Assembly (NCBI GenBank): GCA_964573395.1
Contig: CAZNJI010000005.1
Span: 7,759 to 71,758 of the forward strand
Length of the DNA: 64,000 nucleotides
Reading direction: 5' to 3'
Origin: an uncultured Candidatus Saccharibacteria bacterium
GTDB lineage: Bacteria > Patescibacteriota > Minisyncoccia > Phycocordibacterales > UBA9973
Shown: positions 14,993 to 55,700 of the stretch, piece by piece
How positions within the stretch are numbered: position 1 is the stretch's first letter
Layout of the letters: every line of letters begins with the position of its first letter
Program-made: the position numbers and the translations under genes
Notes under the pieces: model-generated
Told to the model about the DNA's origin: nothing
What the model saw: the letters and a program-made list of their open reading frames with translations, nothing else
Databases searched by the model: none

Positions 14993-15064
14993 GTCCTGGT
15001 GGCCAAGTGGTAAGGCGGAGCTCTGCAAAAGCTCTATACGCGAGTTCGATTCTCGCCCAGGACT
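14993..15064 (+). tRNA. tRNA-Cys(GCA)
   Basis: Acceptor gtcctgg/ccaggac, anticodon stem gagct/agctc with loop cuGCAaa, T-loop ttcgatt. Confidence 0.8.
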
Positions 15065-15143
15065 CCCTAAAACATTTGCTTCGCAAATGTTCGGGCGAAT
15101 AATTTGCCCGAGGCAAATTGTTTTAGCCACAACGTAATACATT

Positions 15144-15227
<84 letters not shown>

Positions 15228-15284
15228 CAAATAAAAAAAGAGTTTTGTGGTCAGGGATAAATACATAATTTGCAGGAATCTCAC

Positions 15285-15371
15285 AAGCTGGGAAACCCAC
15301 GGTTTTCCCAATCCTTCCTCCACGGGGAAACAGCAGTTTCCCCGACCCCCTTCTGGTTCGAATCCTGCTAG
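15285..15371 (+). repeat. tRNA-3'-end-associated two-hairpin module, copy B
   Basis: 15291-15319 is an exact inverted match to 8252-8280. Hairpin ggggaaac-agca-gtttcccc shows a compensatory G-C versus A-T change relative to copy A. It ends with ggttcgaatcctgctag, identical to the sense 3' end of tRNA-Lys on the other strand. Confidence 0.6.
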
Positions 15372-15424
15372 ACTAATCAATGTAACAAAAAATTCCTAGC
15401 AATAAGCTAAGAATTTTTTATTAT

Positions 15425-15498
15425 GTGCGCCTAGCAGGATTCGAACCTGCGACCGTTTGCTTAAGAGGCAACTGCTCTACCGACTGAGCTATAGGCGC
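15425..15498 (-). tRNA. tRNA-Lys(CUU)
   Basis: Minus-strand fold: gcgccta.. acceptor, anticodon loop cuCUUaa, T-arm gcagg-ttcgaat-cctgc. Confidence 0.8.
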
Positions 15499-15509
15499 TT
15501 ATAAAAATG

Positions 15510-15594
15510 TGCCGAGGAGAGGACTTGAACCTCCACAGGTGTAACCCTACCTGCTCCTAAGGCAGGCGCGTCTACCAATTTCGCCACCTCGGCA
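15510..15594 (-). tRNA. tRNA-Leu(UAG)
   Basis: Minus-strand fold: acceptor gccgagg, anticodon stem cctgc/gcagg with loop cuUAGga, long variable arm. Confidence 0.8.
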
Positions 15595-15715
15595 GGCACT
15601 TTTTTATACCATAATTCCCTTTTCTTTTCAAAGATTCCTTTCCATTTATATTGACAAATAAACATTTTTATGCATAATATAATCAAACAATTTTCGTAAA
15701 TTAAAAATAAAAAAT

Positions 15716-16936
15716 ATGGCATCAAACAAACGTCCGCTATTTCTGTTTACCCCTGAAAAAGGTAAGCATTATATCCTCACCAAATTCAACAAGGAAGTTG
15801 AGGAGGTATTCTACGATCCGAATAATCCGACAGAAGACGAGCCCTCTCTTTTATTCCTTATCCCCTACTTTTGGCAATTAGCCCAGTGGCAGCTTGAATG
15901 GACTGAAAGGATGAGCAAAGATGAAGCAATCGCCCGGAGAGAAAAAATTAAAAACGATCCGTTCCGAAGCCTTGAAATCTTGCTCGATCTTCCAACTGCA
16001 ACTGAAGGACAACAATTAACCCAAGAAGGGAAAGAATCTGAGAAAACCGATGAAGCGAAATCGCTTCAGGTTATCGTTGTTCGGAAAGAGCCAGTTTGGT
16101 ACTTGTTTCATTTGGAAGCTCACCCTGTTATTGTTCCGTTTACTACAGAAGACGGGAGCGACTTCCTGCTCATCGTGCAAGCAGCGTATCAAACCAATGA
16201 TGCAATCCTCGCAAAAACAAGCGTGAAAAACTATTTGTCGTTTGCGGAGGTTCAAATTTCAGAGGCGCTGGGAACTATTGGAAGAAATAAAACGTTCGAC
16301 CAAGCCCTAAAAATCGATTCTGAAAATTTCGGAGATTTTGTCTCGGAAGGAATTACTATTGCTGATAACAGCTCTGAGACAAGAAGAAAGAAAAAAAGCG
16401 GCATCATCAAAGTCATCAAATACCTCAACAAAGAAAAGTTTAGAAAGTTAGGATTTGAGCTCACCGATCTCATGTTCACCCGAGTGCTGGTAACCAGAAG
16501 GTCTCATGACATTTTGGAACAAAAAGAAAACCTGAAAAAAGCCGTGCTGCAAAATCAGATCGCAGAAGAGCAGGCAAATGCTTTTAAAAAGCATCGCCAG
16601 GCTCAAATCGACATGCAGCGCAAAGAAGGCATCATTGTTTCAAAGAACATGCGCGACCAACTGCAAGAGGTTTACCGTTTCGACTACCATGAATCTCAAT
16701 TGGTAGACAAAACAACGACAACCATTGCTCAAAACCTGGGAGCAACGCACGGGAAATTAACCCTCCTCGGAGAATCATTTCTGTCTAAAAAATCAGAAAT
16801 GTACAAAGAGGCAGTGCTTGCAAACATGACTACCGAAGAAGAGCCTGATGTTGCAGGCACCATTGAAGAGGCAAACAAACAACAGAAAACGCCAAACAAA
16901 CGAAAAGGAGGTAAATATGGCAAACCAAGGAACTAA
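15716..16936 (+). CDS. Hypothetical protein with a Lys-rich C-terminus
   Basis: 406-aa ORF with ordinary coding composition and no recognisable motif. Confidence 0.5.
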   Translation: MASNKRPLFLFTPEKGKHYILTKFNKEVEEVFYDPNNPTEDEPSLLFLIPYFWQLAQWQLEWTERMSKDEAIARREKIKNDPFRSLEILLDLPTATEGQQLTQEGKESEKTDEAKSLQVIVVRKEPVWYLFHLEAHPVIVPFTTEDGSDFLLIVQAAYQTNDAILAKTSVKNYLSFAEVQISEALGTIGRNKTFDQALKIDSENFGDFVSEGITIADNSSETRRKKKSGIIKVIKYLNKEKFRKLGFELTDLMFTRVLVTRRSHDILEQKENLKKAVLQNQIAEEQANAFKKHRQAQIDMQRKEGIIVSKNMRDQLQEVYRFDYHESQLVDKTTTTIAQNLGATHGKLTLLGESFLSKKSEMYKEAVLANMTTEEEPDVAGTIEEANKQQKTPNKRKGGKYGKPRN

Positions 16937-17603
16937 CAAAAGGCGTAGGCTGCAGCCATGGTGGGTAAAAATAGCATGGTGGACAGCAGTGCTCTTAGCT
17001 TTTGCTATCATCATAGGGCTACTCATTCTCATTTTCAGCATTCCCTGGTATTGGCTGCTGCTTGGAATCGCAGCGATTTATCTCCTTTCGCAAGGAAGAT
17101 CGATCGGATCAGTTACTGTTCCTGGCATAGGATGGAAATGGGTACTTGGAATTCTAATTGGTACTGGAGTTCTACTCAGCCTTCCATCCATCATCGGCTG
17201 GATTAAAACAAAGACTGAAACAGGATATTACGCCTGGGCGAAACGCTACTACGAGAACCTTTCAGAAGAAGAGAAAATCAAAGCTGGAATAGGTTGGAGT
17301 ACCATCAGTCAAGGAGAAACAAAATATTTGTTTCTCCAAAGGGATAAAAGCCGCACTTTTGAATTCGACGGATTAGAGAACGGTGATACCGTTACTGCCC
17401 GCCTGATGCGAAGAGATACTGATTCGCCGCGGATGATTGCCGTTTGGACGGAGGGTAACCCAATTTACATTAATGGCTATCCTTATGGAACAAAAGAAGA
17501 TGTGGATGGTTTTCCTATCGACTTTGAAACAAATCTGAGCCCAGGGTTGTACCTGGTAACAGTCAACAAAAAAATCAAAATGCGCTTTGCCAAAGAATGG
17601 TAA
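16917..17603 (+). CDS. Hypothetical membrane protein (2 TM)
   Basis: MANQGTNKRRRLQPWWVKIAWWTAVLLAFAIIIGLLILIF.. then a soluble C-terminal domain. Confidence 0.5.
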   Translation: MANQGTNKRRRLQPWWVKIAWWTAVLLAFAIIIGLLILIFSIPWYWLLLGIAAIYLLSQGRSIGSVTVPGIGWKWVLGILIGTGVLLSLPSIIGWIKTKTETGYYAWAKRYYENLSEEEKIKAGIGWSTISQGETKYLFLQRDKSRTFEFDGLENGDTVTARLMRRDTDSPRMIAVWTEGNPIYINGYPYGTKEDVDGFPIDFETNLSPGLYLVTVNKKIKMRFAKEW

Positions 17604-17606
17604 CGC

Positions 17607-17638
17607 AAAACGCCATCCGAGTTCGGATGGCGTTTTTT
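17607..17638. terminator. Bidirectional rho-independent terminator
   Basis: aaaacgccatccgagttcggatggcgtttttt. Confidence 0.7.
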
Positions 17639-17648
17639 ACTGCCTCAT

Positions 17649-17981
17649 TTATTTCATCTTCACTGACGGCAGAACGGGAGTATTTATTTTCTGCTCATTG
17701 ACGTTCACGTAGCTGAGCCCGAAAATACTGACGAGAAGGTTTAGTATACCGAAGACGCTTACCATGATGACCATCCCGATGATGCCCCAGAGCATATGCC
17801 GCTGGCCTTTTTCCTTCGCCTCTTTATTGGCGCCGTTGCGAATGAACGCAACCATGCCGTAGAGAAAATACGCAAGGGCAATGGCAAACGCAACGCTAAT
17901 GAGTGGGTTAAATATAAACTTGTTCAGCTTATACACCAGCTCCTGAACGCCGTCTGCGGCATAGACGACAGGGTCAAACAT
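17649..17981 (-). CDS. TrbC/VirB2-like (T4SS pilin-like) small membrane protein
   Basis: About 110 aa with two hydrophobic helices separated by the charged loop NGANKEAKEKGQRHMLWGIIGMVIMVS. It is paralogous to three downstream genes. Confidence 0.5.
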   Translation of the reverse strand: MFDPVVYAADGVQELVYKLNKFIFNPLISVAFAIALAYFLYGMVAFIRNGANKEAKEKGQRHMLWGIIGMVIMVSVFGILNLLVSIFGLSYVNVNEQKINTPVLPSVKMK

Positions 17982-17999
17982 ATCGTAAGAACTCTTTTA

Positions 18000-18407
18000 T
18001 TAGATACAACTTCCAGAAGGGCCAACCGGGCGAGTTCCTGGAGGACAAGGGAGTTTATTCACTGAATTTGCTCCTGCTCCAATGCCAAGTGTGTTTCCAA
18101 TAAAGTACACGATTCCCCATACTGACACAATCACGAAGAGTCCGATAATGCCGGCAACCATCTGCTTTCTTTTTTCAGTACGCTTTGCGGCATCGCTTGT
18201 CGTAACAAACTGAATGACGGTCCAAATGAAATAGAGCGTTGCAAGAATCATCAAGAAGGTGATTCCCATGCGGGCATATTCAAATACTTTTGCCACCCAA
18301 AAATCAACTTGGCCGGTATTTGGAACGCCTGCCGTCTGAGCTAATGTAACTGCAGGTATAATAAGTGAAACACCAAATACAGTTACGGATTGAAGAAACT
18401 TTTTCAT
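18000..18407 (-). CDS. TrbC/VirB2-like pilin-family protein
   Basis: Signal peptide MKKFLQSVTVFGVSLIIPAVTLAQTAG, TM1, loop DAAKRTEKRKQ, TM2 MVAGIIGLFVIVSVWGIVYFIG. Confidence 0.55.
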   Translation of the reverse strand: MKKFLQSVTVFGVSLIIPAVTLAQTAGVPNTGQVDFWVAKVFEYARMGITFLMILATLYFIWTVIQFVTTSDAAKRTEKRKQMVAGIIGLFVIVSVWGIVYFIGNTLGIGAGANSVNKLPCPPGTRPVGPSGSCI

Positions 18408-18480
18408 AATAAAAAATAAATAAATTGGTAATTACTAAACCCGGTACCCGCCTGGGCACGGTATTAAAATTATACCACAC

Positions 18481-20289
18481 CTACTCCTCTTTCAATTGTG
18501 GCGGAAAGTCGAACCTGAACCCGAGCGTATCCGTTGCCAAGCGCACAATGCCCCAAATTGACACCATAATAAAGAGCGCAATAATCGCCCACAGCATGTA
18601 GCGCCTGCCTTCAGCCCGCTTGTCGGTTGAATCCGCCGCCATGTAATACTTGATGACGCCATAAATAAACAAGAGGGTGGCAAGTACGAAGGCAAGCGGA
18701 ACGAATATTCGGGAAACAATGTTTTGAATCGTACAGGAAATAGCCTTAAAACTAGTGAAGCGGAAATTAATTTGGGCACAAGTTAAGCTGGCATCAGAAA
18801 CCGTTTCGCTGGTAAGGTCCTTTCCCCCGCCAAGGTCGCCAAACGGCGAACTGCCGATGACCCCAGAGCTTGCCTTCTTGCAAGTTAAGTTCTGCCAATA
18901 ATAGGTGTTCGCTATGTACAGATACACCGGCTTTCTTGTCTTTACCCCATTCTCATTCGTTACTTCCTGATAGCCGATCGGCTTATCATCGTAGCCGTCG
19001 CAGTCAGTATCGCGGTTTTGGATACTGAAACCGCTCGGGCACATTTTCTTGTAAAAAGGCTCGTTCGGAAGCAGAATCATGTTTCCTTTCGCATCCCTTC
19101 TTCCCGAATATCCGGATCCGTTCGAATCGGCATAGCCGTCGCAGTTGCGGTCTACTTTCGTTGGGCACATCAGTGTCCAGTCAGCCATCGCTTCGCTTGT
19201 ACCAAGCAAATCGGTCCCTGTTCGATCATCGATACCATCGCAATCAGTATCGCGCGGCTGGCAGAGCTGCTGCCACGCCGGCAATTTATCGATAGTTTTT
19301 AAATTCTCACCCGAAATATCATCAGTGCCGTCGCAATTTTGATCGATGTACCGAATTGTCGCAGAGCAATCAAGTTTCCAGCTTTGCGTATTTGTAATGT
19401 CCAAACATATCGGTTGCGGAACATTCGGCTGGGCAACGTATCCCGGTTCTGCAACATTAGCGCAGCTTGGCAGTGTTCCATACTGCTTTGTCGGGTCCTG
19501 ATTCGTATATCCGAGCGGCGTATCATCGTACCCATCGCAGTTCGCATCATGGCCGTTGCTTCTATATCCGCTTGGGCATTGGAGCTTATGAATATTAAAA
19601 TCAGTTCTTTGTTGGGAGTTTTGCGGATTATCAACAAAATACTTTATGCCGGTAAAATCTGAATATCCATCGCAGTTCTGGTCTATTTTTCCCGGACAGA
19701 GCGATCCCCAAATCTGCCACAGTTCCGGTTCGTTTGGGTTAAAGAAACTAATCTTTAACACATCATCAACCCCGTCGCAATTTGCATCTTTATATTGGGT
19801 TGGATCCGGGCAGATGCGATTCCAGTAATCCGTTTTTCTGACATCAATGTTCGGATATCTATCATCTCTCCCATCACAATTATTGTCTTTATTTTCCGAC
19901 GAAAACCCGTTTGGGCACTGCCGGGCAAGCGCTAGTTCTGCATCAGTAACCAACTGGCCATTCTCAATTGTTTCTGAAAACATCCGAGTGCCGTTTAGGT
20001 CTGATCGTCCGTCGCAGTTCTTATCAACCTTTCCCGGACACAACAGCGTCCAAGCAGCCCGAGTGATTGTATTACTCAACATATTCAGCCCGGTAATGTC
20101 TTCATTACTGTCGCAATCTAAGTCTTTAAACGGAAGCGGCCCGAGCTGTCCGAGCCCCTGCGAACCTTGCGCATGTGCCGGCAGCGGCATGCTGAAAAAA
20201 CTTCCGAATATGAGCGGAAAGAAAATTGCCACGAGCAAAATGTTCTTAGCCAGTGATCTCATTGACCGTTGTGACGATTGCGGAAGCAA
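18481..20289 (-). CDS. Secreted Cys-repeat protein with a C-terminal TrbC/VirB2-like pilin domain
   Basis: Signal peptide, ten repeats of ..CP....N/DCDGxxD.., then a C-terminus FVLATLLFIYGVIKYYMAADSTDKRAEGRRYMLWAIIALFIMVSIWGIV matching the neighbouring pilin-like genes. Confidence 0.6.
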   Translation of the reverse strand: MLPQSSQRSMRSLAKNILLVAIFFPLIFGSFFSMPLPAHAQGSQGLGQLGPLPFKDLDCDSNEDITGLNMLSNTITRAAWTLLCPGKVDKNCDGRSDLNGTRMFSETIENGQLVTDAELALARQCPNGFSSENKDNNCDGRDDRYPNIDVRKTDYWNRICPDPTQYKDANCDGVDDVLKISFFNPNEPELWQIWGSLCPGKIDQNCDGYSDFTGIKYFVDNPQNSQQRTDFNIHKLQCPSGYRSNGHDANCDGYDDTPLGYTNQDPTKQYGTLPSCANVAEPGYVAQPNVPQPICLDITNTQSWKLDCSATIRYIDQNCDGTDDISGENLKTIDKLPAWQQLCQPRDTDCDGIDDRTGTDLLGTSEAMADWTLMCPTKVDRNCDGYADSNGSGYSGRRDAKGNMILLPNEPFYKKMCPSGFSIQNRDTDCDGYDDKPIGYQEVTNENGVKTRKPVYLYIANTYYWQNLTCKKASSGVIGSSPFGDLGGGKDLTSETVSDASLTCAQINFRFTSFKAISCTIQNIVSRIFVPLAFVLATLLFIYGVIKYYMAADSTDKRAEGRRYMLWAIIALFIMVSIWGIVRLATDTLGFRFDFPPQLKEE

Positions 20290-20785
20290 TCGTCCATGCT
20301 CCTAATATAAGCAGCGCTCCGATAAGCGTGTACCAGAACATGCGTTTTGCTTTTTCGATGGTTTCCTTGTTGCCGCGAGCCGTGACGAACAAGAAGCCGG
20401 CGTAAATGAAGAATAGGACGATAAATGGAATGGCAACGGTAAGGATGGCATCCATAATCTTTTTAATCAGTTTTGGAATGGTGTCGGTTTCGCCGAGCGG
20501 ATTTTTCAGTTTGATATCGATTTTTACACTATCAGCAGCAGATGATCCCGATTGCTGGCCAGGAATAGATTCGCTATTGTCGGAGGTAGAGCTGCAATCC
20601 GGGTCAAATGTTGCTCCCGAACCGAAATCCCTCTTACCGTCACCATCGTTGTCATTTCCATCATTACATTCAGTAGTGGTAGATCCCACGGAACCTTGTG
20701 CCATTGCTTTTGGCAGACTACCGACTGCTCCAAGCAAATAACATGACAAGAAAATGGTGAGAAAAAATATTCGCATTAGTTTCAT
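20246..20785 (-). CDS. TrbC/VirB2-like pilin-family protein with an acidic Cys-containing N-region
   Basis: ECNDGNDNDGDGKRDF..DPDC, then IPFIVLFFIYAGFLFVTARGNKETIEKAKRMFWYTLIGALLILGAWTI. Confidence 0.5.
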   Translation of the reverse strand: MKLMRIFFLTIFLSCYLLGAVGSLPKAMAQGSVGSTTTECNDGNDNDGDGKRDFGSGATFDPDCSSTSDNSESIPGQQSGSSAADSVKIDIKLKNPLGETDTIPKLIKKIMDAILTVAIPFIVLFFIYAGFLFVTARGNKETIEKAKRMFWYTLIGALLILGAWTIASAIVTTVNEITG

Positions 20786-20789
20786 TATA

Positions 20790-21191
20790 TCATTCAAAAA
20801 ATCTAAGCCCTGCATCATAGCCGAGCGTTACCATGATCATCTTCACGATGAGCCACGAAGAAAGCACCAAGAGCAGCCCGAGAATCGCCTTCCAAAGCAT
20901 TCCTTTTACTTTTGCATGCACACCCGGATTTCCCTGGGCAGTAATGTACAGATATCCCGCATAGAGCAAAATGAAAACGAAGATAGGAAGTACGAGATAC
21001 TCAATCGACTTTTCAATGAGCGTATTAATAAGAGTTAAGAGATGGCTAAAACCGCAATCATTCGTGCATGGCACCAGGCCAGTATCATTTTGCGCATAAA
21101 CGGAGACAAAAAAACCGCTGAAAAGAAAAAAGAGGGTGAAAGCAGCCAATATGTTAGCGAATAAGGCTTTGCAGGGCGCGGTTTGCTTCAT
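20790..21191 (-). CDS. TrbC/VirB2-like pilin-family protein
   Basis: Signal peptide, VPCTNDCG, then LPIFVFILLYAGYLYITAQGNPGVHAKVKGMLWKAILGLLLVLSSWLIV. Confidence 0.5.
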   Translation of the reverse strand: MKQTAPCKALFANILAAFTLFFLFSGFFVSVYAQNDTGLVPCTNDCGFSHLLTLINTLIEKSIEYLVLPIFVFILLYAGYLYITAQGNPGVHAKVKGMLWKAILGLLLVLSSWLIVKMIMVTLGYDAGLRFFE

Positions 21192-22446
21192 AGATTGCTT
21201 CCGTCGGCGACATCCGACCGGAACTGACATTGGTAATCATAGCACGAAAAACATCATCGCTCTTCGCTTCGTCGGGGTCTGGCCATGAAAACACGGAAAC
21301 TGCCGTGCCGAAAAATACGTTCATGTACGGATTATCAGGCCTCAGCACCAATAAATCGCGCCGAGCCGGCGGGATGGACATGGTTTTCGAGAGATAGTCG
21401 GAGAATCCGACGCCGGCAAGCTCAAGCATTGCTGAATACGCGCTCACAAAATTTTGCGAAGCCTTTACCGTTGCAATGCCGGTAAAATCCGCAAACACGA
21501 CCGGCCGCTCCGTTTCTTCCGGCTGCGGCACTTCCGTGACGTCGAAATTAAGGTTCGGGTTTTGCGCTCGTATCTGGAATAAATCGGAAGCAGTGCCTAT
21601 GTAGAATGCGGCTTTTCCGGCGACAAACATATCAAGCGAATTCGGAAGCGATCGATTCCACGAATAGAACTCATTCACCGGGTTGGCAAACGAAATGTAG
21701 TACATGAGCGCTTCTCCGGCTGGAGTGCCTCCCTCGATGGTTCGGTCGAGCTGTGCCCCGTAACGCAGTGTCAGCGGATCTTCCGCAACGATGCGATTGC
21801 CTGTTTGCAGGAACAAATTTGAAAGAATCTTTTTAAAATAGCGAACGTTTACCGATTCGCCAAGCGGCAGCGCCGTTTGGGTTATGGCGCCGGCAGTATC
21901 GCGCTTGACGAAAAACGGTAGGAACCGGTTCAGCTCTTCCCAAGTGCGCGGCGGCGTAATGATGCCGACACGGGCAAGCATGTCTTTATTGTAGTAGAGA
22001 ACGAGCGGGTCAACGGTAAGTGGAAATGCCGCTATCCCCTCTTGGTTCAGAAAAACGCTTGCCCCATCAATGTAGGTATCCCGATATAACCGTTCCGAAT
22101 AGCTGGTAAAAGGAACCGGAAAGAGCTTGTCTTTATTCCGCAAGAACGTACTGCTGGTAACGAGTACTAAGTCGGGGCCAGTGCCGGACGCAAGCGCTTC
22201 AATGAATGATTCGGTAAAAACATCAGGTGCAATCGCCGTATAGACAACTGAATATGGTTTTCCTTTGTTAAATTCATTAATGTACGGCTCAACGTTTTCC
22301 ACCGGAATGGTTCCCCAGAGCGCAACGGTTCCTCCGGCGCCCGGAGTGTTCGATGAACCAATTTTGATAATGCCGGCAAAAACAAGTACGGCGAAAAAGA
22401 AAATGAGTACGAAAACAGCAAGGAGAATAATGTGAAAATTACGCAT
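21154..22446 (-). CDS. N-terminally anchored extracellular solute-binding-protein-like protein (ABC SBP family 1-like)
   Basis: A TM anchor, then a ~400-aa alpha/beta domain with SBP-like segments (LWGTIPVE.., FPLTVDPLVLYYNKDML). Confidence 0.5.
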   Translation of the reverse strand: MRNFHIILLAVFVLIFFFAVLVFAGIIKIGSSNTPGAGGTVALWGTIPVENVEPYINEFNKGKPYSVVYTAIAPDVFTESFIEALASGTGPDLVLVTSSTFLRNKDKLFPVPFTSYSERLYRDTYIDGASVFLNQEGIAAFPLTVDPLVLYYNKDMLARVGIITPPRTWEELNRFLPFFVKRDTAGAITQTALPLGESVNVRYFKKILSNLFLQTGNRIVAEDPLTLRYGAQLDRTIEGGTPAGEALMYYISFANPVNEFYSWNRSLPNSLDMFVAGKAAFYIGTASDLFQIRAQNPNLNFDVTEVPQPEETERPVVFADFTGIATVKASQNFVSAYSAMLELAGVGFSDYLSKTMSIPPARRDLLVLRPDNPYMNVFFGTAVSVFSWPDPDEAKSDDVFRAMITNVSSGRMSPTEAIYEANRALQSLIR

Positions 22447-28745: not shown

Positions 28746-29324
28746 ATGAATGAAGCTCCCCAGTATCCTCGAGAGTCGAAGTTTCGGGCATTCGTCGAAG
28801 GAGCGCTGTATTTTTTGAGTGCTTTTGCGCTCGCGCTTTTGATTCAAACCTACGTTGCCCGACCGTTCATCGTCAACGGCCAATCAATGGATCCGACTTT
28901 TTCGGACGGCGAATATTTGATCGTCGATGAAATTTCGTACCGATTCAACGATCCGGCACGAGGAGACGTCGTGGTATTCCGAGCGCCTCCTACTCCAGAG
29001 AAATTCTTCATCAAGCGGATCATCGGCCTACCTGGAGAAACGGTAGAAATTAAAAATGGCATCATTACCATAAAAAACGATGAGTACCCGAAGGGTTTCG
29101 TGCTCAAAGAAGAATTCATTACACATCGATCGCATGACACGTACCACACCACCGTACCCGATGGCGCCTACTTCGTCATGGGAGACAACCGCCAAGGAAG
29201 TTATGACTCGAGAAGCTGGGGAAGCCTTCCTGAAGAAAATCTTCGCGGGAAAGCGCTGGTGCGGCTCTTGCCCATCAAAAACATCGACTTCCTTCCAGGC
29301 AAGGTAGAGTACAGCGCGAATTAA
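28746..29324 (+). CDS. lepB: Signal peptidase I
   Basis: SMDPTF and GDNRQGSYDSRSWG boxes. Confidence 0.85.
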   Translation: MNEAPQYPRESKFRAFVEGALYFLSAFALALLIQTYVARPFIVNGQSMDPTFSDGEYLIVDEISYRFNDPARGDVVVFRAPPTPEKFFIKRIIGLPGETVEIKNGIITIKNDEYPKGFVLKEEFITHRSHDTYHTTVPDGAYFVMGDNRQGSYDSRSWGSLPEENLRGKALVRLLPIKNIDFLPGKVEYSAN

Positions 29325-34611: not shown

Positions 34612-34976
34612 TCCCCTGTAGCTCAGCGGTAGAGCAGTCGCCTGTAACATGAACAATGTTCAAATAGCAGCTTCCCGATCGAAAGACGGGTCGAAAAACG
34701 AAGTGAATTGACTGGAAATCCTGATCACACAGGATAATCAGCAGCCAAGCCCAGCCGTGAATCCAATAAGTTATTGAACTCACAACTGGGAAGGTTCAGA
34801 GACTATCTCGAAAGAGAGTACTCTCAGCCGTATTTTGTTTATAAAAAAATACGGCTAGGCGGAAGCGCTTCGCACCTTCCCTTTTTATTAAGAATGGTGA
34901 TGATATAGTCCATACCCGCAGTAATGCGAGAATATATGTAAGCGATTGGTCGTAGGTTCGAATCCTACCGGGGGAG
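34612..34976 (+). tRNA. tRNA-Asn(GUU) interrupted in the anticodon loop (between positions 35/36) by a ~293-nt intron-like insert (34646-34938)
   Basis: 5' exon: tcccctg-ta-gctc-agcggta-gagc-a-gtcgc-cugu. 3' exon: uaa-gcgat-tggtc-gtagg-ttcgaat-cctac-cggggga-g. Acceptor 7/7 paired (with U6-G67), and the G73 discriminator is typical of tRNA-Asn. The insert ends in G and contains CAGCCAAG and AGACUA P7-like motifs. Confidence 0.55.
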
Positions 34977-36641
34977 CAAAGTCGAACAAACATCCCTGAA
35001 AATAGGATTTTGTTCCGAAACATCAATGATATTTTCAGGTTCGAACTGTATGTTCTTCTGTTTTGCCGCACTTAGTCCATCAATTAGAGTTTGAAACTCT
35101 TCTGCGTTGGTAATACTCATTTTTTCTTCATTCCAGATAAGGTTCGATTTAAACTTCTTCAAAACAACTCGTTTAGCCTTGGTATCATCTGAAGAAAGAA
35201 CATCCACGAAAGATTGTGTTAAATCAACAATTTCACGCATTCGTATTGACCAATCCTGTCTTTGTATTGATTGCGTTTTAAGCTCAGCAACTTCCCTATC
35301 AATTTTTTCAGCATCTTTTTTGTAATCATCGGGAGAAGTTACACCATCGTTTAAATACTGTCGTGCTCGGTCCTTGCGTGCAAGAAGCTGTTCAAGGTGA
35401 CTTTTTCTTCCTTGTTCAATCGTTACAATGTGCTCTACTTCTCTATCTTTCATTTCTTGAATATTTCTCCTGCACCAATCCGCTAAAGCTGGCGATAGTT
35501 GAAGATTTTCCTTAACGTAGCTGATTAAGTAGTCAGTAATACAAGATTCTTCAATATATCGAGCTTTGAGTTTTTTCTTTCTACGACTGACGTTGTAATA
35601 GTAATGGTATGAGAGGTATTTAGGGCTCTTAATTTCTGCAAGTGTTTTGTTGCATTTAGGGCAACAGTCCTTGTTCTGGTAGGAGAATTTATATTTGCAC
35701 TCGCAAATTAATTGAAGCTTTATATCTGGACCAATAAATTCACCGTAAGGAGATTTAATAAAACCACTATAAGGAGTTAAGTGCTCTTTTGTCTTTGGAA
35801 CACTTCTATCTCCAAGCATTCTGCGTACCTTGTAATGTTCTGCCTCGGTTATCATTCGAGGTAATTCTGGAGCAAGCTCATATCGTTCTCCTCCATAGTA
35901 AAAGAAGCCTGCAAAAATAGGGTCTTTCAAAATTTCATAAATACGTGAGTAAGTAATAAATTTCCCACCAATTCTTTTACTCTTCCGTGTTGTGAACTTA
36001 ACTTCATTTACTGCCCACTCATAGAGCTGTGTTCCGGAATAGCTTCCGGAAAGAAACATACTGAACATCTGTTTGATAATGTTAAACCGATCCTCATCTA
36101 CTAACCACTTCCTATTTCCCTTTTCTTCGCTTCGATCATTTTTAAACCCAAGAGCCGCAAGACCATGTGGGTATCCCATGCTAGCTTTCTTTGCCTGCCC
36201 TCGTTTTACGTTTACCGAAAGATCTCGACTAAACTGATTAGCTGAACCAAATTCAACTGACATAAGGAGTGCATTTTCGTTTGGAAGATATACTTTAGTA
36301 GGAGTAATAATTGCTTTGATGATTCCTTTTTGAAGTAAGTCTATTATGAGCCCTCCATCAACCATGTTTCGAGCAAGACGGTCCAATTTCCAGCAGATAA
36401 TTGCATTGATTTTTCCCTCATGTAGGTCTTTAATCATTCGCTTATAAATCTCACGCTCTCCGGCAAAATGTGCCGATTTTGCTTCTTCATACAATTCTGA
36501 CTTCACTATTTCCCAATATGAAATTAGACGCTCTGCCTCTTCCTTTTGGGCTGGAATTGAAAGGACCTGTTTTTCTTCAGATTCTTGCGATTTCCTACAA
36601 TAAATTCCTGGAATTAAATCTTTTATTTGGTTCCTGTCCAT
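34965..36641 (-). CDS. Large serine recombinase (site-specific integrase)
   Basis: Resolvase catalytic domain (IYCRKSQESEEKQ..S, KLDRLARN), a recombinase domain, and a Zn-ribbon CECKYK..CCPKC. The last 4 codons overlap the tRNA-Asn T-arm/acceptor. Confidence 0.9.
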   Translation of the reverse strand: MDRNQIKDLIPGIYCRKSQESEEKQVLSIPAQKEEAERLISYWEIVKSELYEEAKSAHFAGEREIYKRMIKDLHEGKINAIICWKLDRLARNMVDGGLIIDLLQKGIIKAIITPTKVYLPNENALLMSVEFGSANQFSRDLSVNVKRGQAKKASMGYPHGLAALGFKNDRSEEKGNRKWLVDEDRFNIIKQMFSMFLSGSYSGTQLYEWAVNEVKFTTRKSKRIGGKFITYSRIYEILKDPIFAGFFYYGGERYELAPELPRMITEAEHYKVRRMLGDRSVPKTKEHLTPYSGFIKSPYGEFIGPDIKLQLICECKYKFSYQNKDCCPKCNKTLAEIKSPKYLSYHYYYNVSRRKKKLKARYIEESCITDYLISYVKENLQLSPALADWCRRNIQEMKDREVEHIVTIEQGRKSHLEQLLARKDRARQYLNDGVTSPDDYKKDAEKIDREVAELKTQSIQRQDWSIRMREIVDLTQSFVDVLSSDDTKAKRVVLKKFKSNLIWNEEKMSITNAEEFQTLIDGLSAAKQKNIQFEPENIIDVSEQNPIFRDVCSTLLPR

Positions 36642-37009
36642 AATTGGTTATCTATATTATTTTAACTCATTTTTACGTAGCACCCGACCTTTCTGCCTAT
36701 AATGCATGGCATACCGATAATTTATGTAACAATCTAGGTATAAATACTGACGGCCTCTGCCCTAGAACTCCTGCATATGGTTCATTCTCTGAAGTTCCCT
36801 CTCTTAGGCATCATATTTATTGACCATATGAGGTGCTTATTAATGGGCTGGGTGCGGTGTAGGTCGTCGAAACGCATTATTCCCAGCTTTCACATAAACA
36901 CCCCATGTAGCCTTCATTTTCGTGTACATTGACCAATGTACCTTATTAAAGCGGTGTCTTTTTATCGCGAGTATTCACCAAAGTTCGCTGTGTAGATTGA
37001 ATTGTCGAA

Positions 37010-37225
37010 TCATTTTTTTTCCTGTTTAATAGACTCAACAAATAATGTAAGTAGAAAATCACCGATATTATTTATATCTGTATCAGATAGTTTTTGTGCG
37101 CCAGAATGACCTATTTCGTTTTGTAAGACAAAACGTAAATCATCAATCGCTTTTTGACTTAATCTTCTTATCTCTTCCACTGTTGTGTGCCTATTAAATA
37201 AACACAGAACAAAAAAGCCGAGCAC
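37010..37225 (-). CDS. Hypothetical small protein
   Basis: ORF followed by terminator 37211-37252 (aaaaaagccgagc..gctcggctttttt). Confidence 0.3.
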   Translation of the reverse strand: MLGFFVLCLFNRHTTVEEIRRLSQKAIDDLRFVLQNEIGHSGAQKLSDTDINNIGDFLLTLFVESIKQEKK

Positions 37226-37514
37226 CTAATATTAGGTTGTCTCGGCTTTTTTGTAAGGGAATACAACCTAGGTTAAATTAGGTTATATTCCCTTAGAGAA
37301 ATAAGGAAACGTTGCACTGTTCTATAACTCGAATCGCTGTTTCTTGATGGTCACATAAAGCGCCCTCACAAGTTGCTAGAATTTGACTTTAAAAGTTCTG
37401 TAGCAAAACACCCACCACAACTGTAAGGTATTGGAGTACATATTGTTGTGAGGGATGTTTTACTCTCCAATACCTAATTTTATTTTAGTAAATAAAAATC
37501 AAATTGTCTATAAG

Positions 37515-37530
37515 TTGATTTAGAAATCAA
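37515..37530. promoter_or_regulatory. Palindromic site TTGATTTAGAAATCAA (copy 1)
   Basis: Identical 16-mer with 7-bp inverted arms, repeated at 38304. Confidence 0.4.
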
Positions 37531-37544
37531 GAAATCAAGTTTAA

Positions 37545-37691
37545 TTAATCCTCAAAACCACCTAATAAAGCGATTATTATTCCCATAACAACAAGTGAAG
37601 CAATCGCTGTCCAGAAACCGCCCATTAATAATGCAATGATAAAAACAATTACGGCTAATATTCTCATGAATATATGAATAAAAAACTTCAT
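37545..37691 (-). CDS. Tiny hydrophobic protein (48 aa, below track cutoff)
   Basis: Manual translation: MKFFIHIFMRILAVIVFIIALLMGGFWTAIASLVVMGIIIALLGGFED. Confidence 0.3.
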   Translation of the reverse strand: MKFFIHIFMRILAVIVFIIALLMGGFWTAIASLVVMGIIIALLGGFED

Positions 37692-37693
37692 TT

Positions 37694-37924
37694 TTAATCT
37701 TTCTTAACCAAACTATATTCCTTCGGTTTCTTTCCAGTAATCTTATGAATTACTTTATTAGCGATAGTACATCCAATTACTACAGCAATGATTAAAGGTA
37801 TAAGTCCTTGAACAATAAGACCATTAACAATACCTATTACAATCAAAACAATAAATAACCCAACAATATAAGCAATGATTATTCTTCCTGTACTAGGCTT
37901 CTTAATATTTAACTCTTCATTCAT
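37694..37924 (-). CDS. Small membrane protein (2 TM)
   Basis: 76-aa ORF adjacent to the tiny hydrophobic ORF. Confidence 0.4.
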   Translation of the reverse strand: MNEELNIKKPSTGRIIIAYIVGLFIVLIVIGIVNGLIVQGLIPLIIAVVIGCTIANKVIHKITGKKPKEYSLVKKD

Positions 37925-38303
37925 AGTTTAATTTTTTGTTTAAAAACAATAAAACATTCTTTTAATAATTAAATGGGTTTTTGTATATAAAACGCAAAAA
38001 GCCCAACACGAAGGTGGTAGCTTGCGCTACCCATACCAGTTTCCCGGTATGACCAGTGACGGCAGACCCTTCGATGTTGGGTTCTTTGCACGTCACTGGT
38101 TTTTCTTCACCATGCCAGCCCTAGGGGCTGGTTTAGGCTACTTCGCTAAGTATTACACGAAAATATGAAGTTTTCTACAGATAGGTTTAAAAACCCAAAA
38201 ACCCAAGAAATCCATATTTTCTTAGGTAGATAAGAGTCCGGTTTTTAAACCGGAAAACCCGATATTTTGGTTTAAAAACCAAAAAAACAATAACCCTTAA
38301 AAA

Positions 38304-38319
38304 TTGATTTAGAAATCAA
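38304..38319. promoter_or_regulatory. Palindromic site TTGATTTAGAAATCAA (copy 2), 36 bp upstream of the 38356 operon
   Basis: Exact repeat of the 37515 site. Confidence 0.4.
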
Positions 38320-38355
38320 TTAATCAGAAATTGGCTTGTAAACACAAATATAGCT

Positions 38356-39273
38356 ATGATGCCAAATATGGAAAACTCTCCCACCCCTAAAACAATGTTT
38401 ACTGATACATTTCCTGATGATATTACGTCTGACGAAGAATTAGATGTTATAAAAGCTCAATATCCAGATTACGATGATTATTATGTGGCGAGTGGTTCCA
38501 TTAAGGAACGTAGAGAAAGTTTTGATGCAATGTATCAAATATACGCTCCTTATGCCGATAAACACTTTCTTTCCGATCTAAAAAAGCATTTCCATGAACG
38601 AACATGGGAAATGTATATTGGATATACCCTAATAAAAAATGGTGTCTCATTTACATCCACAAATAAAGGACCAGATATTCTTATTGAAACACCTGAAGGG
38701 AAAATATGGATTGAAGCTGTTGTTTGTAACAGTGGAGATGGCCCAGATCGTGTCCCAGCTATGATATATGGTGTAGCCTCAGATGTACCCGATGATGAAA
38801 TGATTATCAGAATGGCAAATAGCCTTGATGCCAAATTTAAAAAATATCAAAAATATATTAATGAAGATATTGTGTCAGTAGAAGATAAATTAATCATTGC
38901 TGTAAACGCCGGTATTTTTAGCCACGTAGTTGATGGAGATATGCCACTTATTCTAAAAGCAATTTTTGCTATCGGATTCCGAACATTATCATTACCAATC
39001 GACGGAAAAGGACCAGTAAAACCAGGGATCTCGACTAGAAATTTTATTGAAAAGAAAAATGGAAGCAAGGTTGCAACCACTTTCTTTTTAGAAAAAGAAC
39101 ATGCTTCAATTAGTGCTGTTTTATATACCAGTAGAACAGTGCTTAATCAAGATGAGCCAGCTGGGACTAATATAATGGTAGTTCGTAATCCAATAGCTAC
39201 TAATCCTCTCCCGGATGATGCGTTCCCATTTATGCATCAAATTATTACTAAAGGAGGCATTATAGAATTATGA
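38356..39273 (+). CDS. Hypothetical protein (possible PD-(D/E)xK-like nuclease), first gene of a 3-gene operon
   Basis: 305 aa with GPDILIETPEGKIWIEAVV resembling a D..ExK core. Its stop overlaps the next start (ATGA). Confidence 0.45.
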   Translation: MMPNMENSPTPKTMFTDTFPDDITSDEELDVIKAQYPDYDDYYVASGSIKERRESFDAMYQIYAPYADKHFLSDLKKHFHERTWEMYIGYTLIKNGVSFTSTNKGPDILIETPEGKIWIEAVVCNSGDGPDRVPAMIYGVASDVPDDEMIIRMANSLDAKFKKYQKYINEDIVSVEDKLIIAVNAGIFSHVVDGDMPLILKAIFAIGFRTLSLPIDGKGPVKPGISTRNFIEKKNGSKVATTFFLEKEHASISAVLYTSRTVLNQDEPAGTNIMVVRNPIATNPLPDDAFPFMHQIITKGGIIEL

Positions 39274-40268
39274 AAACCTGCATTTATTGTAGATCGCAGA
39301 ATCAATCTTTATTTAAAGGGGTTGAGCATCTTATACCCCAAAGTTTTGGTACTTTCAGCTCTGAGACTCCAACGTTAAAATGTGTTTGTGATGAGTGCAA
39401 TGCTTTCTTTGCAAAAGAACTCGACCAAATACTTGCTCGTGACAGCTGGGAAGGTGTAGAGAGATACAAAAAAGGAATTAAATCCAGAGAACAAAGACCT
39501 ATTAAGAGACTAAAATTTAGTCTCGAAAATACCCCAGAAATGGGCGAATTTGGCGGAATGGTTTTTGAAGGTGTTGATGCTACTACAGGAAAATTACTAC
39601 ATCCGAAAGGGCAATTTCATATAAAAAACATTAAAACTAAAAAATTTGATGTCTTCTTTACAGATGCAATAAAAAATATAAAACTTGATGATGAAACGTA
39701 TGGAGTAAAAGGCACGAGAGAAACAAAAATATTTGCAAATTCTGAAGAAGAACACCAAGCTGTTTTTGATGAAGTAAGAAAAATTATTCCGACTTATAAA
39801 ATAAAAGAAAAATTTCAACCTCCATTTATTCAAGGTAGAAAAGATGATGAAGTAATTGAACTTCCAATTTGGATTGAGGGAACTATTGATCATCCTATAA
39901 AAAGAGGATTAATAAAGATTCTTCTAAATTTTTCAGCTTACTATATTGGAAATGAAGAAGTTCTTAAGTCGGAATGGGATAAAGCAAGAGACTACGTTAG
40001 ACTTAATTCAGAACCAATCTTGGGTAAAGCTGATACTAAACCTTTCTGGGGAGATGAAACAGAAGTAATGCGTCTCCCAAATGATAGCTTTAATATTCTT
40101 GTTGAGAATAAAGGTAAAGATGTAATAGGAAAAATCCAAATATATAATTTTTATACCCACACCTTTATTCTCGCTGAGAATCACAGTATTCCTATAGGAA
40201 AAGAAAAAGCTATGCGCTTTACTAAAGGAAAACCTCCATACCGCGCAGAAAAAAGAACAGTGTTTTAA
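39270..40268 (+). CDS. HNH endonuclease-domain protein
   Basis: N-terminal CIYCRS..FKGVEHLIPQSFG HNH motif plus a second Cys pair CVCDEC. Confidence 0.65.
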   Translation: MKTCIYCRSQNQSLFKGVEHLIPQSFGTFSSETPTLKCVCDECNAFFAKELDQILARDSWEGVERYKKGIKSREQRPIKRLKFSLENTPEMGEFGGMVFEGVDATTGKLLHPKGQFHIKNIKTKKFDVFFTDAIKNIKLDDETYGVKGTRETKIFANSEEEHQAVFDEVRKIIPTYKIKEKFQPPFIQGRKDDEVIELPIWIEGTIDHPIKRGLIKILLNFSAYYIGNEEVLKSEWDKARDYVRLNSEPILGKADTKPFWGDETEVMRLPNDSFNILVENKGKDVIGKIQIYNFYTHTFILAENHSIPIGKEKAMRFTKGKPPYRAEKRTVF

Positions 40269-40302
40269 ATATTAATTAAAAACCACCTTTTTAGTTATTT
40301 TT

Positions 40303-40980
40303 ATGAAGCTACTAGAAATATTTAATACTCGGGAATTAGCGACAATAGTATGGGTCATTATTTTATTTGTATATCTTATCCGAAAACCAGAAATTCGCTC
40401 TAGTTTACTGCGATTTTTAAAAAGTGTTTTTAAATTATGGAAAATAGTGCTTAGCATGATTATCTACATCATTTTCTGTATTTTTATTTTGCACAAAATG
40501 TCGTTCTGGAATATGGATTTACTTAAATTAACAATTTTTTGGTTTTTTGGTTGGGCTTCTGTAATGTTTATAAACCTCAACGATATACAAAAAAATAAAA
40601 GTTACCTCAAAAAAGTACTAGTTAATATTTTAGGGTTAACAGTTGTTATTTCATTTATCACAAATTTCTATACATTTCCCTTTATAGCTGAACTGATCCT
40701 TTTACCAATCATTACGATCCTTTTAGTATTCACAGTTATGCCTCAAATTAAAGGCAACCTAAAAGTAAATAGACTCATAAACCAAGTACTAATTGTTTTT
40801 GGACTTATTGTATTAGCTATTAATATAAAGAGAGTAATATGTAATTTCCAAACTTTCTCCTCTATGAACACTCTACTAGAATTTCTTCTACCAATAATCC
40901 TATCCTTAATGTTTTTACCGTATCTTTATTTACTATTCCTTTATTCAGAATGTGAACAAAAGAAAATAAAGGGTAAATAA
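40303..40980 (+). CDS. Polytopic membrane protein (about 6 TM), probably co-transcribed with the HNH gene
   Basis: Hydrophobic throughout; 34-nt gap from the upstream gene. Confidence 0.5.
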   Translation: MKLLEIFNTRELATIVWVIILFVYLIRKPEIRSSLLRFLKSVFKLWKIVLSMIIYIIFCIFILHKMSFWNMDLLKLTIFWFFGWASVMFINLNDIQKNKSYLKKVLVNILGLTVVISFITNFYTFPFIAELILLPIITILLVFTVMPQIKGNLKVNRLINQVLIVFGLIVLAINIKRVICNFQTFSSMNTLLEFLLPIILSLMFLPYLYLLFLYSECEQKKIKGK

Positions 40981-41039
40981 TATTCCGAAGATCTGTACAT
41001 AAGGCGGAGTTCTTCTGGTAATTTGTTACAATCTAACCT

Positions 41040-41801
41040 ATGCCAACAGAGGCTCATTTTACGCTATACCTCGATGAAACTGGGGATCATCTTCTTTACT
41101 CAGAGGAAGAATACCTTCAAAATTCAGAACTAGAAAGTCATTGTACTCTCTTAGGCTACATCCTTCAAAATGACGTTAAGCCTATTGTAAAAGAAGGACT
41201 CAAAGCCTTGAAAAGAGAATTTTGGAAGACGGATGAAGTTATATTACATAGTGTAAAGATACGTCATAAACAAGGATGCTTCGCTTTGTTTCATTACATA
41301 CCTGAAATGTATGAGAAATTTAAGGTTCGATTAATGGAGATTATTAAACTATCTAACCCCGTGATTGTATGTAGTTCACTAGACAAGCGATTATGGATTA
41401 AAAAATATCCAAGGAAATACTACTTTAAAGACGATCCTTATGATCAGGCATTTATTTTTCTTCTGGAAAAATATGCGCGTTTTCTTAACGATCAGAAATA
41501 CGACAAAGTGGTTGGTCGAATATCTGTTGAAAAAAGAGATCCCGCCAGAGACAAATCGCTAAGAGAGACATATACGAGCGTAAAGAGAAATGGTACTCAA
41601 TTTCGCAATAAAAACTTTTTCGATAAACTCTCGGATAAAATGGATTTTGACAGTAAAGGATTCAATATTCCCGGTTTGCAATTGAGTGACTATTGTTCAT
41701 ATCCTTTTTATATAAACCATAAATTTCCTACTCGAGATAATAAATTATATGAACTACTTAAGACATATATTTATAACTGTGGACATAAAAAATGGCCCTA
41801 A
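41040..41801 (+). CDS. DUF3800-like protein
   Basis: N-terminal LYLDETGD resembles the DUF3800 signature (hydrophobic-YIDESG); 253 aa. Confidence 0.5.
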   Translation: MPTEAHFTLYLDETGDHLLYSEEEYLQNSELESHCTLLGYILQNDVKPIVKEGLKALKREFWKTDEVILHSVKIRHKQGCFALFHYIPEMYEKFKVRLMEIIKLSNPVIVCSSLDKRLWIKKYPRKYYFKDDPYDQAFIFLLEKYARFLNDQKYDKVVGRISVEKRDPARDKSLRETYTSVKRNGTQFRNKNFFDKLSDKMDFDSKGFNIPGLQLSDYCSYPFYINHKFPTRDNKLYELLKTYIYNCGHKKWP

Positions 41802-41944
41802 AAAACACAAAAGAGCTCGTATTGAGCTCTTTTGTGACCCCTCATTCGAAGGGAAAATATCACTGAATGATACCTTTTAATTATATATTAAAGAACAATC
41901 TTGTATACATAGTTATTAACAGTCCATCAACGTTCGGAACAAAC

Positions 41945-42451
41945 TCAATGGATAGAAATAAAACCATCATCATAATGCTCTTTAAATTTAATTAAGTTAG
42001 TGTCATCAAGTTTGTTTTGAGAAATATACAATTTTGCCGCCTCGATTATGTCTTTACAAAATGTATGAATATTGATTATCATTTTTCGTGGCTGTATAAC
42101 TCCTTTATTATAATTACCTCCCAAATAACCGAAATGAGATGAACTTTTTTCCGTTAAAACCACAAATTTATCAAAAACGTCCTTAAAATACTTCTCATCT
42201 TGAGTTGTTACATCGTCAGTTCCCTGGTGTAGAGCAGCACATCGAAAAGCCCAACAAATTTTCCCGGGAATGCCTCTACTTGCATATGTAGGCATATTTT
42301 CGTTAAACCATTGTATATATTTCTCTCCTAAACCCCTCTTTCCTTCTTTTATTGAAACGCATATATCTGGAATTGTTAAGGCAATAAATAATGCTCCGAA
42401 GAAGGCTTTATTTTCTAAACATATCTCAATTGAATCACCCAATTCATTCAT
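41945..42451 (-). CDS. Hypothetical protein (downstream gene of a 2-gene operon)
   Basis: 168-aa ORF, 3 nt after the upstream gene. Confidence 0.4.
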   Translation of the reverse strand: MNELGDSIEICLENKAFFGALFIALTIPDICVSIKEGKRGLGEKYIQWFNENMPTYASRGIPGKICWAFRCAALHQGTDDVTTQDEKYFKDVFDKFVVLTEKSSSHFGYLGGNYNKGVIQPRKMIINIHTFCKDIIEAAKLYISQNKLDDTNLIKFKEHYDDGFISIH

Positions 42452-42454
42452 AAA

Positions 42455-42817: not shown

Positions 42818-42871
42818 ATACAGGGCTGTTTTTTGTTGCCCCAGTAGGGTTCAGAACTCAAATTTGTTACT

Positions 42872-43582: not shown

Positions 43583-43595
43583 GTTTAGAGAAATC

Positions 43596-43702: not shown

Positions 43703-43708
43703 AAATAT

Positions 43709-43736
43709 TTGACTTATTTATATTTTATGCTATTAT
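43709..43736 (+). promoter_or_regulatory. Sigma70-like promoter after R1 (TTGACT-16-TATTAT)
   Basis: Seen in sequence; conserved with the promoter after R3. Confidence 0.55.
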
Positions 43737-55697: not shown

Positions 55698-55700
55698 ACG

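Follow-up and report, generated by a model that had tools for sequence, protein, structure and literature searches.

The closest described relatives of the locus treated here, an array of five type IV secretion system (T4SS) pilin-like genes of an ultrasmall bacterium, on the minus strand of a 64-kb stretch of contig CAZNJI010000005.1 (the window), are the VirB2-like pilin arrays of Patescibacteria, the candidate phyla radiation (CPR). These bacteria account for a large share of bacterial diversity and are host-dependent, how they attach to and draw on their hosts is largely unknown, and the possession of VirB2-like pilins by a monoderm is one oddity of their T4SS. The kind of locus is already published (2023-2025), as clusters of T4SS-pilin-like genes in CPR genomes, including clusters lying away from the machinery, with a likely role in host interaction. 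In the sections drawn on here, the survey by Quiñonero-Coronel et al. (Microb Genom 2025, PMC12102498), which covered 3,035 genomes with profiles including PF18895 and PF04956, reports VirB4 in 2,417 of 3,035 Patescibacteria assemblies and VirB2-like pilins in 1,948 VirB4-positive assemblies, near virB4 in only 1,135 of the 1,948. These sections also count 441 pilin arrays of 2-11 genes in 383 assemblies, with a mean within-array identity of 25%, describe relaxases as mostly absent in the Patescibacteria surveyed, and suggest that the arrays help adaptation to different hosts, a view restated in a 2025 review (PMC12857230).

A second point of comparison is Southlakia epibionticum ML1, whose epibiotic growth requires a pilin array within the T4SS cluster SEML1_0006-0019 (Wang et al. 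2023, Cell, PMC10633639; PMC12857230). The authors point out that Gram-positive T4SSs are normally without pili and that the S. epibionticum cluster contains neither relaxase nor coupling proteins (PMC10633639).

The present locus is an array in the sense of the survey, whose sections cited here require at least two tandem pilin genes, or pilin genes with at most one non-pilin gene between them, encoding highly divergent paralogues (PMC12102498): its five genes are contiguous and the paralogues are 19-43% identical, against an average of about 25% there. It further resembles the arrays described in those sections in its PF18895 proteins, its tandem arrangement within the range of 2-11 genes and its chromosomal position, often away from virB4 and without a relaxase context. 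The survey, as these sections present it, was anchored on virB4 neighbourhoods and found arrays most abundantly in Microgenomatia and Saccharimonadia, whereas the array described here belongs to a Paceibacteria clade; a gyrA-methyltransferase-solute-binding-protein context, five-class positional orthology, an ectodomain of ~460 aa and a pilin without signal peptide, all seen here, are not mentioned in them, and accessions of related assemblies, sought in the supplement, were not found there. With S. epibionticum, a member of Saccharimonadia, our array shares several sequence-divergent but structurally similar VirB2-like pilins, a monoderm CPR bearer and a presumed epibiotic host role other than conjugation (PMC10633639). 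It differs in that the six S. epibionticum pilins lie inside the T4SS cluster and are essential by transposon sequencing, whereas the array here is detached and known from genes alone.

We consider it rather probable that the five genes, A to E, encode subunits of a heteromeric T4SS-type pilus for host contact, assembled by a T4SS encoded elsewhere. The locus is no new kind of system; it is a clean and deeply conserved example of such an array in Paceibacteria, a class that experiments have hardly touched, and its features are leads on host specificity in CPR bacteria.

The five pilin genes and their family

Positions 17649-21230 of the minus strand hold five back-to-back pilin-like open reading frames (ORFs), which we named A to E in transcription order; with corrected starts the array spans 17649-21191. 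An earlier note on this DNA, made from the letters alone, had spoken of four such genes, a count that has to be raised to five; the note itself quoted five peptide strings, and all of these occur verbatim, one per ORF, in the five consecutive ORFs. The starts of A (21191) and C (20262) were set by orthologues and by a separate gene call on L001, a Logan metagenomic contig of identical sequence. The genes and the one large extracellular domain among their products are as follows:

20790..21191, minus strand: pilin A, 133 aa (mechanical ORF to 21230)
20246..20818, minus strand: pilin B, 190 aa (176 aa if the start is at 20776)
18481..20262, minus strand: pilin C, 593 aa (mechanical ORF to 20289)
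18781..20169, minus strand: predicted pilin C ectodomain, 463 aa, ten Cys/Asp-rich tandem repeats
18000..18407, minus strand: pilin D, 135 aa, the simplest member
17649..17981, minus strand: pilin E, 110 aa, two transmembrane (TM) segments and no signal peptide

Each of the five proteins exceeds the gathering cut-off of the Pfam family PF18895 (T4SS_pilin; 26.6 bits, whole-protein score), with 31.5 bits for A, 41.1 for B, 37.8 for C, 35.7 for D and 28.3 for E and with E-values from 1.9e-10 to 1.9e-6; in pilin C the match covers residues 520-584. The precomputed annotation of identical proteins agrees with this assignment. Membership of all five genes in PF18895 is thus established, the T4SS-pilin-like cluster of the earlier note is confirmed and its interpretation as pilins is supported.

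The PF18895 profile is short, with 71 positions that are mostly hydrophobic helices, and A-E also give weak, sub-threshold matches to many unrelated membrane families. Such matches would be expected if the array consisted of unrelated small hydrophobic proteins that fit a low-information two-TM hidden Markov model by composition. We give this explanation next to no credence, and regard it as effectively refuted: five adjacent genes lie above a curated cut-off at E-values of 1e-6 to 1e-10, the paralogues detect one another by BLASTP, a profile built from the array matches no further ORF among the 804 six-frame ORFs of the window at E<=10, and orthologues are conserved across many genomes.

The picture differs for TrbC/VirB2 proper (PF04956, gathering cut-off 27.9 bits), the second model that the earlier note had put forward. 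None of the five proteins reaches this cut-off; B comes closest (23.6 bits, E=6.2e-5), followed by C (10.3 bits), and A, D and E have no PF04956 match at E<=1. Membership in this family is therefore not established, and the bridge to it is indirect, consisting of the sub-threshold score of B and of relatives that appear to belong to both families: 257 pilin-family matches were obtained, nearly all to PF18895, and among the 120 family relatives listed 16 carry PF04956 TrbC besides PF18895. Likewise, none of the five proteins attains the 40-bit cut-off of NCBIfam NF045849, the Mbov_0395 family of pilin-like conjugal transfer proteins (E 32.0, C 31.0, B 30.4, D 27.1 and A 11.8 bits), with E-values of 7e-8 to 2e-6 for four of them; pilin E is the member closest to this model. 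The Mycoplasma proteins Mbov_0395/MMCAP2_0565 resemble the pilins described here in being small two-TM pilin-like proteins of a wall-poor or monoderm lineage with a T4SS of the mating-pair formation type FATA. Unlike the array, the Mycoplasma protein is the product of a single gene of an integrative and conjugative element, and B-E, at 27-32 bits, are not members of its family.

Pilins of type IV pili (T4P, PilA-like) were considered as well and rejected. These carry a class III signal peptide (G↓F/M-x-x-x-E, the arrow marking cleavage) and only one hydrophobic helix, at the N-terminus, with a globular domain behind it, whereas the array proteins have signal peptides of the AxA↓Q type and a C-terminal two-helix hairpin instead; a Pfam scan of the array proteins found no T4P pilin family at E<=1.

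A Kyte-Doolittle scan gives an N-terminal hydrophobic segment and two TM-like segments for A-D, and two TM segments without any signal-peptide-like segment for E. The topology proposed in the earlier note, a signal peptide followed by two helices around a basic loop, therefore holds for four of the five proteins, and for E only as regards the hairpin. Each of the five has an inter-helix loop rich in Lys and Arg, as would fit a position of the loop in the cytoplasm and of both termini outside. In these respects the array proteins resemble the canonical pilins A. tumefaciens VirB2, RP4 TrbC and F TraA, which have a signal peptide, two hydrophobic helices with a short basic loop and both termini predicted outside, and the mature sizes of A, D and E (~70-110 aa) are similar too. 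Topology, size and family context together suggest that A-E would work like a VirB2 pilin. They differ from the canonical pilins in falling below the PF04956 cut-off, in belonging to a monoderm organism and in having no adjacent virB genes, and the large N-terminal ectodomains and C-terminal Cys loops would make head-to-tail cyclisation unlikely in the array proteins, unlike in canonical pilins.

Direct comparison with VirB2, by profile or by fold, was uninformative. Aligning the array profiles with the verified A. tumefaciens VirB2 sequence (hhalign) gave a probability below 1%, a comparison of the array profile with PDB sequences returned only TM hairpins such as HtrII (E ~0.03), and a fold search picked out no VirB2 similarity, only a generic TM hairpin. 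An AlphaFold2 model of pilin D (predicted local distance difference test score, pLDDT, 74.5) consists of a signal helix, a long helix at residues 32-69, a four-residue turn and a helix at 74-106, followed by a small C-terminal hairpin closed by two Cys. Of the structural check that had been suggested earlier, the part concerning the protomer thus gave the expected helical hairpin, while the comparison of folds with VirB2 was uninformative.

The signal peptides of A-D all end in Ala-Gln (in D at 18336-18341), and both residues are invariant in 50 D-type sequences. We take the signal-peptide cleavage of A. tumefaciens VirB2 to be placed at an AAA↓Q junction, so that its signal peptide would share the ...A↓Q end. 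The VirB2 sequence, checked against PDB 8cue, has the matching ...AAAQSAGGG. That the N-terminal Gln is conserved points to its conversion to pyroglutamate or to another kind of processing at the N-terminus, and a signal peptidase I gene is present in the window (28746-29324).

Conservation of the five classes and their ectodomains

Homologues of C and D and a profile of the pilin domain led us to ten additional copies of the locus, which come from nine other genomes (L002, L003, L005/L006, L007/L008, L009, L010, L011/L012, L013 and L014; the arrays of L010 and L014 are incomplete owing to contig ends). The gene order S1, Lactamase_B_3, gyrA, methyltransferase, SBP_bac_1 and then five pilin-position genes is shared by every related locus. 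On the 3' side the relatives have two or three convergent genes of unknown function, beyond which rbfA, infB, DUF4446, aminotransferase and clpB follow in most loci. Among named relatives Candidatus Paceibacterota, Candidatus Nomurabacteria and Candidatus Pacebacteria stand closest, NCBI entitles relatives 'pilin [Candidatus Paceibacterota bacterium]', and a profile search of genome contigs with the pilin C alignment found one 3.2-kb contig of a Candidatus Paceibacterota bacterium. Because of these nearest named relatives we place the array-bearing organism in Paceibacteria/Parcubacteria, within Patescibacteria, in line with the earlier guess of a reduced-genome, host-dependent bacterium.

In an all-against-all BLASTP comparison of the window, L002 and L003, positional orthologues were 54-68% identical (41-46% for C), whereas paralogues were only 19-43% identical over the aligned hairpin. 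The hallmarks of each class can be followed into distant genomes: an LRFLE end and a C-x3-C motif for A, an acidic double-Cys motif and a TVN.ITG end for B, a Cys-rich ectodomain for C, a PCPPG...C loop end for D, and an MF[DE]..AYA start without signal peptide for E. Lengths range across the genomes from 126 to 432 aa for A and from 132 to 614 aa for C, the variable part being the N-terminal ectodomain. Judged from these comparisons, A-E appear as five paralogues that parted long ago within the VirB2-like pilin family of Patescibacteria (PF18895), and the array as an old, stable core-genome locus of a broad Paceibacteria clade, with a fixed order and five position-specific orthologous classes. 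Diversity seems to be confined to ectodomains placed on a conserved two-helix core, the extreme case being the repeat domain of C.

Host-dependent bacteria whose T4SS pilin genes have multiplied in tandem and diverged also include Bartonella and Anaplasma phagocytophilum, for whose VirB2 paralogue arrays the idea of a variation cassette has been proposed. Those arrays belong to diderms, lie inside or beside virB operons and are read as antigenic variation, whereas the present paralogues are old and have fixed positional orthology. Applied here, the idea would make the five genes interchangeable alternative major pilins, diversified against host defences or for different hosts. The low identity of the paralogues, similar to the 25% array average that is read in this way in the survey sections cited above (PMC12102498), and the strong differences in ectodomain length of A and C between genomes are what such a cassette would lead one to expect. 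Nonetheless, each class has a same-position orthologue in every genome and keeps its specific hallmarks, no recent duplication or gene conversion is visible, and the pattern fits five distinct roles rather than interchangeable variants, so that we regard a variation cassette as very unlikely. Old, position-specific paralogues argue instead for a heteromeric structure with specialised subunits.

To take the proteins one by one, the signal peptide of pilin A ends in VYA↓Q and is followed by a short ectodomain with Cys-x3-Cys and by two TM helices, between which lies the loop GNPGVHAKVKG; the protein closes with LRFFE, and its orthologues are 54-64% identical. Pilin B (signal peptide end AMA↓Q, two TM helices, C-terminal TVNEITG; orthologues 56-60% identical) contains one acidic double-Cys motif (C-N-D-G-N-D-N-D-G-D-G-K-R-D...D-P-D-C), which compares with the acidic double-disulfide repeat NF033662 at E=0.026. 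In pilin C a signal peptide ending AHA↓Q is followed by an ectodomain of ~460 aa and then by the C-terminal two-TM pilin domain (residues ~505-580); orthologues of 547-614 aa are 41-46% identical, and in distant relatives the gene at this position encodes only 132-259 aa.

The ectodomain of C consists of ten repeats of the form C-P-x(5-11)-D-x-[ND]-C-D-G-x-[DSA]-D; its 463 aa include 22 Cys and 55 Asp, and its Cys, Asp and Gly columns are invariant in an alignment of four orthologous sequences. It has no Pfam match at E<=1, and a phmmer search of 1.84 billion representative proteins returned only two matches, both from the same clade, for which reasons we leave it as what looks like a lineage-specific, unclassified domain. 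A resemblance to thrombospondin type 3 or acidic double-disulfide repeats lies in the motif alone and was confirmed by no model; an AlphaFold2 model of the ectodomain is unreliable (pLDDT 55). The repeat pattern suggests a disulfide-stabilised, possibly Ca-binding and adhesin-like module, which would make the domain a candidate for host recognition.

In pilin D the signal peptide ends in TLA↓Q, the loop between the two TM helices reads SDAAKRTEKRKQ, and a Cys loop, LPCPPGTRPVGPSGSCI, is conserved at the C-terminus. In an alignment of 50 sequences A23, Q24, G89, W97, G98 and P122 never vary, while C121 and C134 reach at least 90% conservation; its simple build and conservation make D a candidate for the major subunit. 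Pilin E has a conserved N-terminus (MF[DE]..[VA]YA) and orthologues 67-68% identical, and the full-length orthologues in L003, L005, L007 and L009 are also without signal peptide.

How a heteromeric pilus might be built from these proteins can be outlined as follows. Pilins A-D would leave the cell interior through Sec and lose their signal peptides to signal peptidase I, which would cleave behind the conserved Ala so that Gln becomes the N-terminus. They would then lodge in the membrane as hairpins whose Lys/Arg loop faces the cytoplasm. A monoderm-type Patescibacteria T4SS (VirB4, TrsD, VirB3 and VirB6), encoded elsewhere, would extract and polymerise them into a heteromeric pilus or short fibre, in which the simple and well-conserved D, perhaps together with E, could form the shaft or base. 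A, B and especially C would expose their N-terminal Cys/Asp-rich domains at the surface or tip for binding to the host cell, and the system would serve epibiotic host contact or exchange rather than conjugation. That A-E are processed and polymerised, that they depend on a T4SS and that their role is adhesive is what we infer from their sequences and family context. The preference for host attachment or uptake over conjugation, already voiced in the earlier note, agrees with the published view of Patescibacteria T4SSs in PMC10633639 and in the sections cited of PMC12102498.

Gene neighbourhood and the T4SS machinery

The window is an ordinary piece of chromosome, with topA, relA/spoT, parB, miaA, clpB, a class-V aminotransferase, DUF4446 and infB, as well as gyrA, a SAM methyltransferase, S1, pth, signal peptidase I, hisS, def, fmt, pyk and cell-wall enzymes. 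Pfam and NCBIfam scans of practically all plausible ORFs of 120 aa or more in the 64 kb found no VirB4, VirB6, VirD4 or VirB3 family and no T4SS ATPase or channel family, bearing out the absence of VirB4, VirB6 and VirD4 claimed earlier. Within 10 kb on either side of the array in the nine related genomes, genes for T4SS ATPases or channels were likewise absent, with one exception. On the 215-kb contig of the related genome L011 (JGI 3300045972), positions 15385-20441 hold a tyrosine integrase gene and, behind it, two genes for TraG-D_C/TrwB-like ATPases. These VirD4-like ATPases, one of 434 aa and one of 1034 aa with DUF87, lie 5-10 kb downstream of the pilin array, in the place occupied by rbfA and infB in other genomes, and the stretch is probably an inserted element with genes resembling those of type IV coupling proteins.

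The gene directly upstream of the array and the hairpin behind it are the two other features that bear on its organisation:

21154..22446, minus strand: solute-binding protein gene, 430 aa, membrane-anchored SBP_bac_1, directly upstream of pilin gene A
17611..17632, no strand assigned: terminator-like hairpin, perfect 9-bp stem, T runs on both strands

The product of the upstream gene matches SBP_bac_1 (3.7e-14) and SBP_bac_8 (1.3e-12) of Pfam and has an N-terminal hydrophobic anchor. The gene stands 5' of the array in every related locus, with orthologues 44-57% identical, and overlaps gene A in most genomes, by 38 nt in the window; no ABC permease or ATPase was found near it. The array is thus tightly linked to an orphan solute-binding protein gene and not to T4SS genes. 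Within the array the genes overlap or are 18-73 nt apart. Gene E and the convergent gene 16917-17603 are separated by 45 nt; the hairpin lies in this gap, and its RNA fold has -24.6 kcal/mol, with z = -6.3 against shuffled sequences. A simple terminator scan missed it because the minus strand offers only 4 T. Since T runs flank it on both strands, it looks like a bidirectional terminator that closes the operon. From the overlaps and short gaps, the overlap of the solute-binding protein gene with gene A and the hairpin after E, the solute-binding protein gene and A-E look like one operon, in which that gene is probably co-transcribed with the pilin array.

Several observations weigh against a T4SS-assembled pilus. 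No T4SS core gene is tied to the array's own genome, of which the 64-kb window was seen, and neither VirB4 nor VirB6 families were found within 10 kb of the array in the nine related genomes; since this holds for all eleven instances of the locus, there is no guilt-by-association link to a T4SS. Pilin E is without a signal peptide, and the loops of the array proteins are longer and more charged, being richer in Lys and Arg, than the loop of VirB2.

These same facts invite the explanation that A-E are stand-alone membrane-anchored surface proteins, in which the hairpin is a mere anchor for variable ectodomains and neither polymerisation nor a T4SS is involved, perhaps acting with the solute-binding protein in capturing host-derived molecules. 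Besides the lack of a T4SS gene near the array in any of the eleven loci, this would account for the tight, conserved linkage to the orphan solute-binding protein gene, for the lack of detectable homology to canonical VirB2 in profile comparison, for a fold that is a generic TM hairpin and for the ectodomains being the variable part. It does not sit well with the best-conserved members, D and E, having almost no ectodomain, nor with five co-ordered paralogues whose strongly conserved core suggests packing of subunit against subunit. Moreover, the same family occurs inside T4SS clusters of other Patescibacteria, and pilins are essential together with the T4SS (PMC10633639, and the cited sections of PMC12102498). 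We therefore consider mere anchoring unlikely and retain the T4SS-assembled heteromeric pilus as the preferred interpretation.

A bolder version of the pilus, which we put forward as distinctly doubtful, would be that the solute-binding protein and the five pilins form a self-contained, lineage-wide organelle of Paceibacteria with fixed roles (base, shaft, decorated shaft and a tip adhesin with Ca-binding repeats), a host-tapping or uptake fibre working together with the co-translated orphan solute-binding protein. Were this so, the separation from T4SS ATPase genes would mean either a different route of assembly or a constitutive core locus split from its machine, and a heteropolymeric VirB2-type pilus with a function in nutrient capture would be undescribed.

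Other features of the window

Two genes converge on the array at 15716-17603 on the plus strand, one for a soluble protein of 406 aa and one for a protein of ~228 aa with three TM segments. Neither protein has a Pfam or NCBIfam match, and a homology search with the 406-aa protein returned nothing, though an identical gene is called on L001; genes of similar size at the convergent position in relatives are only 23-39% identical. We considered both proteins as hidden parts of a T4SS and found evidence neither for nor against this. Between infB and these neighbours of the array lie four tRNA genes (Cys-GCA, Leu-TAA, Lys-CTT and Leu-TAG; 14993-15593).

Further away, a low-GC island at 34965-46000 (GC 0.31-0.37 against ~0.48 elsewhere) adjoins a gene for a 558-aa serine recombinase (34965-36641) and contains HNH_5, DUF3800 and polysaccharide-deacetylase ORFs together with several ORFs without family; it is probably an integrated mobile element. 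At 53454-63411 on the minus strand there is a succession of large ORFs that match few families or none, including a 1358-aa ORF (59335-63411) and a 368-aa ORF, both without match, a 430-aa ORF with Dockerin_1 and Big_6 domains and a 293-aa ORF with a sub-threshold match to an OmpL47-type barrel domain; these large ORFs may encode surface proteins.

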